DNA of 64,000 nucleotides from Promethearchaeia archaeon (GTDB lineage Archaea; Asgardarchaeota; Lokiarchaeia; Sigyniarchaeales; SOKP01): NCBI GenBank assembly GCA_029856125.1, contig JAHQWJ010000107.1, positions 32,001 to 96,000 on the forward strand, written 5' to 3'. Below are positions 1,197-17,366 of this stretch, piece after piece (the stretch's first letter is position 1; every line of letters begins with the position of its first letter). The position numbers and the translations under genes are program-made. The notes beneath the pieces were generated by a model. It saw only the letters and a program-made list of their open reading frames with translations, had not been told where the DNA came from and did no database searches.

Positions 1197-1271
1197 TTGA
1201 TCTAATTTTAGTTTTCAATTCTCCATAATATCACCATAATATCAAGGTAATATTGGTATATATACATTTAA

Positions 1272-1293
1272 TCGTGAAACTCAGCTTTCACGA
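1272..1293. other. 8-bp inverted repeat (TCGTGAAA-ctcagc-TTTCACGA) next to an A-run; possible terminator or operator
   Basis: Perfect inverted repeat in the intergenic region, followed by an A11 run. Confidence 0.35.
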
Positions 1294-1444
1294 AGAAAAA
1301 AAAAAACTAAGTCAAAACCTACTTTGTCTTATCATTTGAATACTTTTTATAGAACAAATGAGAGAAATTTAAGTAGTTAGAATTCTATGAAATCTTTAAT
1401 AGTATTTAACTACTAAAAAAATATTTCCAAAATGGTCGAAACCT

Positions 1445-2521: not shown

Positions 2522-3040
2522 ATGAATAATATGAACGAAGAACCGCCAAGGCCTAGTGGATTACCAGCGGGTTCTATAGCACCTATCTTTGATACTCAAG
2601 ACATCTACGGAAAAAAAATGAATTTAGAAAGCTTGCTTGAAGAATACGACGGAGTGTTGATTGATTTCTTTAGAGGAAACTGGTGAAGTCATTGCAAAAA
2701 ACATTTAACGCTACTAACCGAAAAAATATCTGAATTTGAGAAAAGGAATATTAAACTTATGTCAATAGCAAGCGATAGCGAAAGACTTTTAAAGAAATTT
2801 AAGGAAGAAAATAATTTTGCTGTTGATATGATCTCTGATCGTGGAGCTAAAATCGCAAAAGAATACGATGTTTACTGGTTTGCTCCCGGTGGAGGAGGAA
2901 CTTTAAATGTTAAACAAGCGGTGCCAAGCAAGTTTCTGATAAACAAGGACAGAAAAATCTTATGGACATACATAGGCAAAGATAAAACCGACAGGCCTTC
3001 TATAAAAATGATGACAGACATCATAGACGAAAAAATTTAG
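2522..3040 (+). CDS. Peroxiredoxin-like (AhpC/TSA, thioredoxin-fold) selenoprotein, UxxC motif
   Basis: ATG at 2522 (or 2531) reads ...GLPAGSIAPIFDTQDIYGKKMNL...LIDFFRGNW-TGA(2684-2686)-SHCKKHL... in frame into the 2759..3040 ORF. The TGA sits at the first Cys of FxRGxWCxxC. A SECIS follows. Confidence 0.9.
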
Positions 3041-3042
3041 TC

Positions 3043-3110
3043 CCCCATAAGAATGAATCGTGAGTGAAAATTTTAGACTCCCGACGACGAACCTAGCAAG
3101 GTTTCATGGG
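3043..3110 (+). promoter_or_regulatory. SECIS element (eukaryote-like, 3'UTR)
   Basis: ATGA 3053-3056, stem TCGTGAGT/ACTCCCGA, loop GAAAATTTTAG, GA 3086-3087, side hairpin AACCT-AGCA-AGGTT, closing helix CCCAT/ATGGG. Begins just after the stop codon. Confidence 0.85.
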
Positions 3111-11903: not shown

Positions 11904-12140
11904 ATACTTAGAGAGTAAACATTATTTCATGTATAAGTTAATAAAAATGTTAAGGAATACATAGGACACAATCCTATCGTTCATCTTCCACTATCATTTT
12001 CTGAAAGATTTCAATCTTCTTCAAGATTTATTCCTATTAGGTTTAAAATAATGAGAAAAAGTTTCATTTTCCTTTCCGTATTTTGTTAAAATTATCCTCT
12101 TAAATGTTCCTATATCCAATCGATTTTTCACTTTTTCTCA

Positions 12141-12501
12141 TCAACATCCAACATCTTGTTGTAATTCAATAATAGTATCCGGATATAAATTGAATTTGAT
12201 ATCTTCTCTTATTGGATTAAATTTTCTGTAAAGACCTTGATCATCAGGAGCATAAGGAGATAACCCGACATCGTCGTAAATTGTTTCGTCATCCAAATTT
12301 ACAAATAGTTGCAGATAGTTGTGGATATATCCTTCATGAATAGGAAAAATTTTATTCTCTAAACTTTCACTTTCCATTTTGTCAACCAACGCTAATGTTT
12401 CAATAAAATTTGCTTCATCCTTAATCTCAAGATCGTAGTCCTTTCCACTTTGCAAGCCTTTTATCGGAATTGATATTTTAAATTTTAGCTTTTTGACTCA
12501 T
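12141..12501 (-). CDS. Hypothetical protein ending in Gly-Cys, possibly beta-grasp (MoaD/SAMP-like); one-base frameshift near the 5' end
   Basis: SD-like GAGGTG precedes the ATG at 12501. Removing one base from the A5 run (12490-12494) gives MSQKLKFKISIPIKG fused to the 12141..12455 ORF. Confidence 0.5.
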
Positions 12502-12550
12502 CTCACCTCTAATTGATTATAAGTGTTATAATTCTTAAAAAAAAAAAAAA

Positions 12551-14823: not shown

Positions 14824-14886
14824 TTTGATAACCCGTGCAAGGTAGTCCTCAAGCGTCTAGAATTTATACACTTGAATCATTCAATT
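14824..14886 (-). promoter_or_regulatory. SECIS element (eukaryote-like, 3'UTR)
   Basis: Minus strand: ATGA (14880-14877)-T-TCAAGTGT-ATAAATTCTAG-ACGCTTGA-G-GA-C-T-ACCT-TGCAC-GGGT. Same architecture as 3043-3110 with compensatory stem changes. Confidence 0.85.
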
Positions 14887-14899
14887 TTTATTTTTGGAA

Positions 14900-15406
14900 T
14901 TAATTTTGTAAATAAGTATCAATCGCGTTTAGAATATCTTGAATTTTAGGTCTATCTGTTTTAGTACCGATATAACGCCACACGATTTTACCATTTCGAT
15001 CTATTAGGTAAGTTGAAGGAATTGCGAGCTCACTTTTGATCGTATCATAATCTATTGGTATTCCAAAGACATTATAATCTTTTGAAATCTTTGCTTGTTC
15101 GTCCGCAATTATCGAAAATTTATAGTTTTCCTTGTCGGCAAGCCGTTTTAAAAGTCTTGCTCTATCCGTTGCGATTGACACAAATTTTACATTTCTCATT
15201 TCAATTTCAGATATATCGTTGTTAAGTTTTAATAATTGTTCCTTTCAATAGTGTCACCAAGCACCTCTGAAAAAATCGATTAATAATCCGCGGTATTCTT
15301 GAAGAACATCTGTTGAATTGATTTTAGCTCCATGGATATCAACAGTATCAATCACTGGTGCCATGCTCCCTGTCTTTAAACCTTTTTCAGAATTTGAGAC
15401 AGTCAT
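14900..15406 (-). CDS. Peroxiredoxin-like (AhpC/TSA) selenoprotein with UxxU motif
   Basis: ATG at 15406 reads MTVSNSEKGLKTGSMAPVIDTVDIHG...LIDFFRGAW-TGA(15256-15254)-HY-TGA(15247-15245)-KEQLLKL... in frame into the 14900..15199 ORF. 168 aa, paralog of 2522..3040, followed by a SECIS. Confidence 0.88.
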
Positions 15407-15539: not shown

Positions 15540-17132
15540 GTGATTAAAAAAATGGTAGACAAAGTTATTCCATTTCTTATAAATGTGGGGGAGGTTATTC
15601 CTACTCGCTCTAAAGCTACATTGTTAGACGAGATGGCGATGGCATTAAATGAATGCATAAACATTTATGGAAAAACTATTAAGAAGTTAGGAAAAATTAA
15701 TAGAATCTCATTATGTTTTTGGCCCGTTCGTTTAATTCCTTTAAGCGATACTCGTGCCTGTGTTTGTAGTTACTTACTCAATAAACAAGAAAAATTAAGT
15801 GTTGGTAAATTCTCCCAAACACCTCCCAATCCCAATAATATTATTCAAGGGGCAGATCCCGCTTCCTTTTTGAATTCGCTAACCTCATATAATGCTACTT
15901 ATTTAAAAAAACCAAAAAATTATAAGAGAGGTACGGCTATTCAAGAAGCTCTATTTAGTTCTAGTGAAGTTGATTATTTTAAGAACTTTTTCTTGAATCA
16001 ATACAATGTTAGTTCATTTAACGAGCCATATTTTCTTTTAGAAGGAGGGCCAATACCAAAAAGCATTAATCAAGCAAAAATTATTCCAGAGGTATTTGAG
16101 TTCATCTCGCAAACGGATGTTAAAATGTTAGCTAATTATGGTCAAAATATTATAAAATTATGCGATAGGTGGATTCAGAGAGGTTCTCAAGAAACAGACA
16201 AATTAAAAACAAAAAAAATTGACACCAGTGAAGAAGAAAAGCAGCTAACTCAAATTACCAGAGAACTCGAGGCTGAAAAAAATCGGAAAATCGAAGCTAC
16301 TCCAGAGGAATTAGTTAAAAGTGGAAAATATAAGATCAGCGATAAGACTGGCGATCTTTATAATAATCTTAGTGCTTCTAAAAATTCCGTTGATCGTCTT
16401 AAGAATGCTATCAATAAAAACGATTTATTTGAAGTGGAAGAAGCATTGAAAGATTTAAACATAAAATACAAGGATTTAGGAAACACGATTGGTAGATATC
16501 AAACTGAAATTACTCAAGTAAAGAAGAACATACAAAAAGAATTAAATGATTTAGAAAGATCAAAGCAACAAAGAATAAGAGAGCTTGAAAGAAAAAAATC
16601 TGAGATAGAAAGTACAATTCAAACAAAACACAGCGAGCTTAGTGGTGATCTAAGTTCTGCCGAAGATACTGTAGCAAGGATCAAACAGGAAAAGCAATCT
16701 TGCTTGGATAATATCGATAGAATCAGGGACATTGAGATGACTAGCGTACAAAACTTCTTCAATACTTATTCTATCGAGATAAGAACTAAAGATGTTGTGG
16801 TAGGTGTGCCTATGTTCGTTTTCTATTTTATCGATCCGAATACACGTCGAACTACTGAAAGAGCTCCCGTATTACCTATACTAATCGAAAATGGAAAGAT
16901 CCACCGAACAAAAGTGACCGATTCATTTAGAAGTAAGCTACGGAATCTAATGAACAAGGACAATGCGATGATAAATTTAGTTGAAAACGGAGGAGAAACG
17001 GGAAATTTAATGGAGATCAAAAATGTAGATTCTAAACTCGAGGATGCAATTAATGATTTACGAGTAAGGAAAGTTTTAGGTAAGAAGGAAGCTGAAAGAG
17101 ATAAAGATATTATTTATAATCTAGTTTGGTAA
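15540..17132 (+). CDS. Hypothetical protein with long central coiled coil
   Basis: 530 aa. Residues about 215-400 are E/K/Q-rich with heptad character, flanked by globular regions. Confidence 0.75.
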   Translation: MIKKMVDKVIPFLINVGEVIPTRSKATLLDEMAMALNECINIYGKTIKKLGKINRISLCFWPVRLIPLSDTRACVCSYLLNKQEKLSVGKFSQTPPNPNNIIQGADPASFLNSLTSYNATYLKKPKNYKRGTAIQEALFSSSEVDYFKNFFLNQYNVSSFNEPYFLLEGGPIPKSINQAKIIPEVFEFISQTDVKMLANYGQNIIKLCDRWIQRGSQETDKLKTKKIDTSEEEKQLTQITRELEAEKNRKIEATPEELVKSGKYKISDKTGDLYNNLSASKNSVDRLKNAINKNDLFEVEEALKDLNIKYKDLGNTIGRYQTEITQVKKNIQKELNDLERSKQQRIRELERKKSEIESTIQTKHSELSGDLSSAEDTVARIKQEKQSCLDNIDRIRDIEMTSVQNFFNTYSIEIRTKDVVVGVPMFVFYFIDPNTRRTTERAPVLPILIENGKIHRTKVTDSFRSKLRNLMNKDNAMINLVENGGETGNLMEIKNVDSKLEDAINDLRVRKVLGKKEAERDKDIIYNLVW

Positions 17133-17183: not shown

Positions 17184-17366
17184 TTAAACTTCCATAAAGT
17201 TCATCTTTTGACCGCAGCATTCTGGAATTGGTTGATAACCACACTCTTCCGATTGGCAACAACATAACAAATAATTGTCTTTGACCATCATAGATTGTTC
17301 ACAACATACTGGCACATCAGTTTCATTTCCACAAATGTCACATTTTAATTTTGGCATTACTATCAA
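17184..17366 (-). CDS. Small Cys-rich metal-binding protein (tandem desulforedoxin-like motifs)
   Basis: CDIC...PVCCEQSM and CCCQSEEC...PECCGQKM; start may be the ATG at 17357. Confidence 0.7.
   Translation of the reverse strand: MIVMPKLKCDICGNETDVPVCCEQSMMVKDNYLLCCCQSEECGYQPIPECCGQKMNFMEV

Follow-up and report, generated by a model that had tools for sequence, protein, structure and literature searches.

Selenocysteine (Sec, written U) at both positions of a redox box has been described in Lokiarchaeia for the protein PrxL.1 (Mariotti et al. 2016, PMC4989117). [quoted passage not shown] SelL itself (Shchedrina et al. 2007, as summarised in PMC4989117 and PMC3316567) carries a UxxU motif in a Prx-like fold and is the known diselenide case. 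The main text of Huang et al. 2024 (PMC11227280) gives 43.2% as the share of Sec-using Asgard genomes with Prx-like selenoproteins, and the main text of a 2026 catalogue (PMC13188914) has an entry for a Prx-like thiol:disulfide oxidoreductase with domain PF00578 and a UxxC or UxxU motif. Main-text passages of the two papers give no account of the split between UxxC and UxxU, of repeated switching between the two, or of a 3' hairpin. The initial annotation of the locus studied here regarded UxxU as the hallmark of SelL, a view that is too narrow, as the main text of the catalogue has the motif in the Prx-like family and in two other bacterial families.

Here we examine a PrxL gene in a window of 64,000 nucleotides from a Promethearchaeia archaeon. 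It has in common with PrxL.1 (PMC4989117) the Prx-like character, the two Sec residues in the box, the absence of Cys outside the box and a lokiSECIS soon after the stop codon, and its genome has in common with that of PrxL.1 a one-Sec paralogue, there PrxL.2; a diselenide is predicted for both proteins. The two genes come from different genomes and are likened here by published description, two-Sec forms being present in several PrxL clades. Family, domain, motif class and a type I eSECIS-like element are likewise common to the Asgard Prx-like selenoproteins as they appear in the main texts of PMC11227280 and PMC13188914. By its domain, box, UGA pattern, Cys-free remainder, lokiSECIS and host machinery, the gene is a Lokiarchaeia two-Sec PrxL. 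The novelty of an archaeal two-Sec protein, which the initial annotation had implied, does not hold, since PrxL.1 had already been reported; this type of protein, along with its element and the idea of a diselenide, has been known since 2016. For biochemistry, the earlier statement that no archaeal example is characterised agrees with the literature, in which we found none. Natural diselenide enzymes are rare and archaeal ones have apparently never been assayed, which makes the gene a usable test object. The additions made here are at least ten Cys/Sec switches at codon 54 and a UxxC paralogue at a distance of 12 kb.

A PrxL gene with two in-frame TGA codons

When TGA is read as U, the minus strand contains a single open frame of 168 codons running from the ATG at 15406 to the TAA at 14900 (14900-15406), with an AhpC-TSA/Redoxin fold that is supported by PF00578 (79.7 bits), PF08534 (67.8 bits) and the predicted structure. 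The redox box reads FFRGAW-U-H-Y-U-KEQL. Its first position is the TGA of codon 51 (15254-15256, minus strand) and its second the TGA of codon 54 (15245-15247, minus strand), at which most homologues have Cys. There are zero Cys codons in the gene, and no hydrophobic leader was found in the protein sequence. Under translation table 11 the frame is broken, leaving a fragment of 50 aa (15254-15406) and, from codon 70 on, an ORF of 99 aa (14900-15199). The initial annotation had stated that the ORF track misses the first 69 codons, that UGA stands at codons 51 and 54 of this box and that the frame is otherwise intact, and the reading of the 168-codon frame bears this out. Both box TGAs are under selection, and on the flanks both 5' and 3' of them synonymous changes equal or exceed replacements.

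The genes next to it encode short-chain dehydrogenases and a coiled-coil protein that lacks annotation, none of which links a substrate or reductant gene to it. The gene order is conserved within the genus only, and we propose no functional link of PrxL with these neighbours or with the TGA-TGA gene at 12021-12497. Promoter and terminator scans at the locus performed no better than chance. Divergent from the PrxL gene, 15540-17132 on the plus strand encodes a protein of 530 aa, of which a long region resembles a coiled coil; the protein has no convincing match in Pfam and is 92-95% identical across genomes of the same genus. We also observe a 60-aa Cys-rich ORF (17184-17366, minus strand) with several CC and CxxC motifs, possibly a metal-binding protein.

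The lokiSECIS element

A single lokiSECIS begins 19 nt past the TAA, in line with the approximately 20 nt given by the initial annotation. Its type I core (14846-14880, minus strand) consists of AUGA, a 9-bp stem paired at 9/9 positions, an 11-nt A-rich loop ending in G, and GA, and it matches the published definition (PMC4989117). In the 3.7-Mb genome the strict motif was found 6 times, compared with 1, 1 and 0 times in three local shuffles, so the PrxL element exceeds chance expectation. The folding energy of the hairpin is ordinary (z −1.05 to −1.55), as is expected because the pairs of the SECIS core are non-canonical, and Rfam returned no meaningful match for it. Among 100 PrxL homologues, 71 are followed by a lokiSECIS with at least 7/9 pairs, and stem positions exchange pair types among these 71 elements, which were chosen for pairing, so that their paired percentages are inflated. 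Together with its UxxC paralogue, the gene also lends itself to the study of two UGAs, three codons apart, that a eukaryote-like SECIS would recode in an organism from which no SBP2 is known.

A short second hairpin, with a 4-bp stem and a 5-nt loop, lies 2 nt past the SECIS core (14831-14843, minus strand). It is present in 54 of the 71 PrxL elements, compared with a mean of 20.7 and a maximum of 29 after shuffling, and is possibly part of the lokiSECIS element. Across the PrxL elements it is placed 1-3 nt past the core, including just after 3087 on the plus strand, often with a CCC/GGG lower helix. Fixed-register consensus folding of the extended SECIS gave the main stem only and did not recover a three-way junction. 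The SECIS-structure account in the main text of PMC11227280 does not contain this hairpin.

In a looser SECIS scan of the genome, several of the best matches follow TGA-containing frames, for example VhuD-like genes. Two further lokiSECIS-like motifs with 9/9 pairs, at about 48132 of contig C8 and about 2466 of contig C124 (both minus strand), had no TGA-containing frame beside them in the SECIS scan; they may serve genes that lie farther upstream or have overlapping stops.

Codon switching among homologues and the UxxC paralogue

PrxL matches at E ≤ 1e-15 were found in 91 of 400 Asgard genomes, all of the same order as this genome, and close orthologues (85-92% identity) belong to genomes labelled Promethearchaeota, which agrees with the Asgard origin proposed initially. 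The initial annotation had also suggested a tabulation of TGA against TGY across Asgard homologues. We compiled it from 100 distinct Asgard PrxL sequences, this gene and its UxxC paralogue included, which are mostly one family and hence not independent. Position 51 is TGA in 100/100, and position 54 is TGA in 38 and TGT or TGC in 62, with nothing else observed. In orthologues from separate assemblies (82-92% identity) both TGAs are retained and the SECIS lies 15-19 nt past the stop; across independent assemblies the two codons stay fixed even at about 58% identity, and the frames on either side are open. As judged from the sequences, a pseudogene or sequencing error cannot explain such a codon pattern, and both TGAs are very probably recoded as Sec.

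In a tree for which U was treated as C, this gene falls into a well-supported clade of 10 sequences, 10/10 of which are two-Sec. Sequences with UxxC and those with UxxU are interspersed in it, with at least ten Cys/Sec changes at position 54; the tree is unrooted, and gains and losses are indistinguishable on it. We lean slightly towards the two-Sec state of Asgard PrxL being independent of SelL and a labile, selected trait.

The window also contains a UxxC paralogue (2522-3040, plus strand), 47% identical to the two-Sec protein, with one TGA at 2684-2686 and its own lokiSECIS with a 7/9 stem (3053-3087, plus strand). UxxU and UxxC paralogues occur together in several genomes, this one included. 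With both paralogues at hand, Se-Se and Se-S chemistry can be compared directly, and if the two-Sec state is indeed labile and selected, such a pair would be a natural test of diselenide versus selenenyl-sulfide. The value for annotation is real as well: PrxL entries in databases are mostly truncated fragments of 92-115 aa or have Trp at the Sec sites, the Trp being best explained by table-4 gene calls on short contigs.

Fold, active site and proposed mechanism

The predicted structure, folded with Cys in place of Sec, has a pLDDT of 94.8. Its overall fold is common to BCP/PrxQ and ResA/TlpA proteins (PDB 3hjp, 2cx3, 4nmu; TM 0.73-0.84), with 14-22% identity in the structural alignments. The closest matches are BCP/PrxQ peroxidases (TM 0.84 for Bcp4), ahead of ResA (0.73), so the fold alone does not favour disulfide exchange.

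The active site differs from that of the peroxiredoxins. Within the PF00578 domain, a CxxC-type redox box takes the place of T/SxxC, and the PxxxT/SxxC motif is absent, its columns being occupied by R47 ... U51 .. U54; in the alignment with A. pernix PrxQ these three residues stand opposite Pro, Ser and the peroxidatic Cys. The catalytic Arg that precedes a late beta strand in peroxiredoxins is also missing. In its position PrxL has Pro130 (15017-15019, minus strand, counted from the ATG at 15406), a thioredoxin-type Pro that is invariant in 100/100 homologues; the aligned residue is the catalytic Arg in A. pernix PrxQ and Pro in ResA. This replacement of Arg by Pro points to thioredoxin-type chemistry. 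With ResA, PrxL has in common a WCxxC-type box and the Pro preceding the next strand; unlike ResA, it has no membrane anchor, and it differs from both ResA and BCP/PrxQ in its use of Sec. Outside Asgard, the relatives closest to PrxL are widespread FYRGxW-CxxC proteins in which this Pro is also present, and 133 of the nearest library representatives have CxxC at the box columns. Additionally, the invariant Sec is the first box position, as in UxxC boxes of the thioredoxin type.

We consider it likely that the product is a cytoplasmic Prx-like thiol/selenol oxidoreductase of the Lokiarchaeia PrxL family, two-Sec type, and, with a little less assurance, we favour thioredoxin-type exchange through a Sec51-Sec54 diselenide. 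By established Sec biology, the lokiSECIS would direct EFsec and Sec-tRNA to both UGAs, with the UAA terminating translation. The chemistry and the substrate we infer as follows. Sec51, placed by the fold at the start of helix 52-63, would be the exposed nucleophile and would attack a substrate disulfide or a similar oxidised centre. Sec54 would then resolve the mixed intermediate to give the intramolecular Sec51-Sec54 diselenide, a role assigned to it because the protein has no other Cys, and a low-potential cellular reductant would regenerate the enzyme.

A different reading accepts the recoding of both UGAs and takes the protein for a peroxidase like BCP/PrxQ, in which peroxide oxidises Sec54 and Sec51 resolves. 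Selenolates react readily with peroxide, the top Foldseek matches of the model are Bcp/PrxQ/AhpE, and U54 occupies the alignment column of the peroxidatic Cys in A. pernix PrxQ; furthermore, the conserved R47 (99/100) and R152 (97/100) could replace the missing Arg. However, the canonical Arg is Pro throughout the homologues and the Pro and Thr of the Prx motif are gone, and it is position 51 that is always Sec, position 54 being Cys in 62%, which marks 51 as the reactive site. We regard the peroxidase as unlikely, though as the strongest competitor to exchange through the diselenide.

Relation to selenoprotein L and other readings

The initial annotation had left two possibilities, a relative of SelL or an independent origin of UxxU, and the evidence favours the second. 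If PrxL were the archaeal orthologue of SelL, with UxxU inherited from a common ancestor, the common motif, the common broad Prx-like superfamily and the single SECIS for two UGAs two residues apart (for SelL, as summarised in PMC4989117 and PMC3316567) would be accounted for, and the SelL-related model NF040769 does match at E 2.7e-11. The score, however, is 43.4 bits against a cut-off of 120, and the ResA (60) and BCP (54.6) models score higher; PF13911 reaches 18.6 against a cut-off of 27. PrxL lies in the FxRGxW branch, with the FYRGxW-CxxC proteins as its nearest relatives outside Asgard. A RYFG-CxxC family of Lokiarchaeia reaches 60-73 bits with the SelL model, more than PrxL does, and is set apart by a long branch in a proxy tree, which is one without SelL sequences. 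The repeated toggling of codon 54 inside PrxL implies in addition that UxxU is easily gained or lost. Orthology with SelL is therefore improbable. The resemblance, as far as profiles and codons tell, is probably convergent; PrxL may work like SelL and is probably not a SelL.

No match to NF040769 above its cut-off was found in 101 Asgard genomes. The RYFG-CxxC Prx-like family (loci L116-L122) has no Sec and is itself still under the cut-off of the SelL profile, and a search for SelL by way of this family yielded no other family among the matches listed.

Diselenides are hard to reduce, a point in favour of yet another reading, in which the two selenols would serve as ligands for a soft metal or metalloid (Hg, As, Cu) or as a selenium store, with no catalytic exchange. 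The main text of the 2026 catalogue (PMC13188914) also has UxxU in a putative metal-binding family. Against this, catalytic oxidoreductases typically have such a Pro close to the box and an intact Trx/Prx fold, the interleaving of UxxC and UxxU on the tree suggests one common function, and the ORF lists of the window contain no metal-resistance neighbours. We give binding or storage very little weight compared with an oxidoreductase.

Sec machinery of the host genome

The initial annotation had named tRNA-Sec, SelD, PSTK, SepSecS and EFsec as the machinery to be expected, and all except EFsec were found in the assembly, PSTK in the form of a PSTK-like gene. SepSecS has a profile score above its curated cut-off, and the PSTK-like gene is a full-length match (E 2e-49) under the curated cut-off. 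Two tandem SelD genes are located on contig C24 (553-2855, minus strand). Both have an in-frame TGA close to the N-terminus, and the stop of each is followed by a similar AUGA element. A tRNA-Sec with a UCA anticodon lies directly upstream of SepSecS on contig C101 (about 1256-1407, minus strand). Its anticodon loop is enlarged by an insertion of 27 nt and its T loop by one of 31 nt, without which the cloverleaf folds; a 31-nt T-loop intron has been published for the Loki tRNA-Sec. Because of these insertions, Rfam RF01852 and ARAGORN did not detect it, and BLAST with the tRNA of a relative found the copy. Several genomes of the same genus are likewise without an Rfam tRNA-Sec match, perhaps from the same cause.

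Profile search returned no EFsec in this assembly, the best TIGR00475 match in the genome being EF-1alpha and rejected as such. EFsec is present in 5/5 genomes of the same genus, and its flanks there match contig C101 at its end and contig C42 at its start, so that, by the gene order in relatives, the gene most likely falls into the assembly gap between the two contigs. In this genome TGA terminates 320 of 2362 long open frames and is thus a normal stop elsewhere.

That the PrxL TGAs are true stops, errors (a pseudogene or an artefact) or Trp codons genome-wide, as the missing EFsec and the Trp at box sites of some database proteins could suggest, is largely refuted and extremely unlikely on the codon evidence, given their fixation within open frames across independent assemblies, the alternation of the box codons with Cys only, and the use of TGA as an ordinary stop.

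A putative ubiquitin-fold family with adjacent TGA codons

Through the SECIS scan we also reached a family that is separate from PrxL and more novel than the PrxL finding. Its frames seemingly end, but past the TGA-TGA they go on in an extension that is conserved and about 35 residues long, and a lokiSECIS follows. The copy in the window (12021-12497, minus strand) has its TGA-TGA at 12138-12143, reads G-C-U-U, and is followed by a degenerate SECIS-like element (UUGA...AA; 11980-12014). Of 80 copies examined, 72 contain TGA-TGA, and in 7 a Gly codon separates the two (TGA-Gly-TGA). With a relaxed pattern, a SECIS-like element is recognised in 61 of the 72 TGA-TGA copies, and in most copies of the family the lokiSECIS lies about 110-145 nt past the first TGA. 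Within the extension, third codon positions account for most of the variation, and neither of the other two frames is open. Of 400 Asgard genomes, 129 contain homologues.

The family has no match in Pfam or NCBIfam and was not found in the main text of the 119-family 2026 catalogue (PMC13188914). The best matches of its predicted structure are SAMP1 and Urm1, both weak. The gene at 12021-12497 encodes a candidate selenoprotein, with putative adjacent Sec-Sec at the end of a predicted ubiquitin/SAMP-like fold.

A second copy in the genome, of the H-A-D-U-U type and with a perfect lokiSECIS, is found on contig C122 (12214-12549, minus strand, and downstream), where a ferredoxin and a Cys-rich thioredoxin-like ORF precede it. 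Genes of this family often have no in-frame ATG, the frame opening instead at ATT, GTC or GTT (about 12490-12510, minus strand, in the window, and at homologous loci). These openings lie a few bases past a GGTGA motif resembling a ribosome-binding site, and their sequences suggest non-AUG starts in the family.
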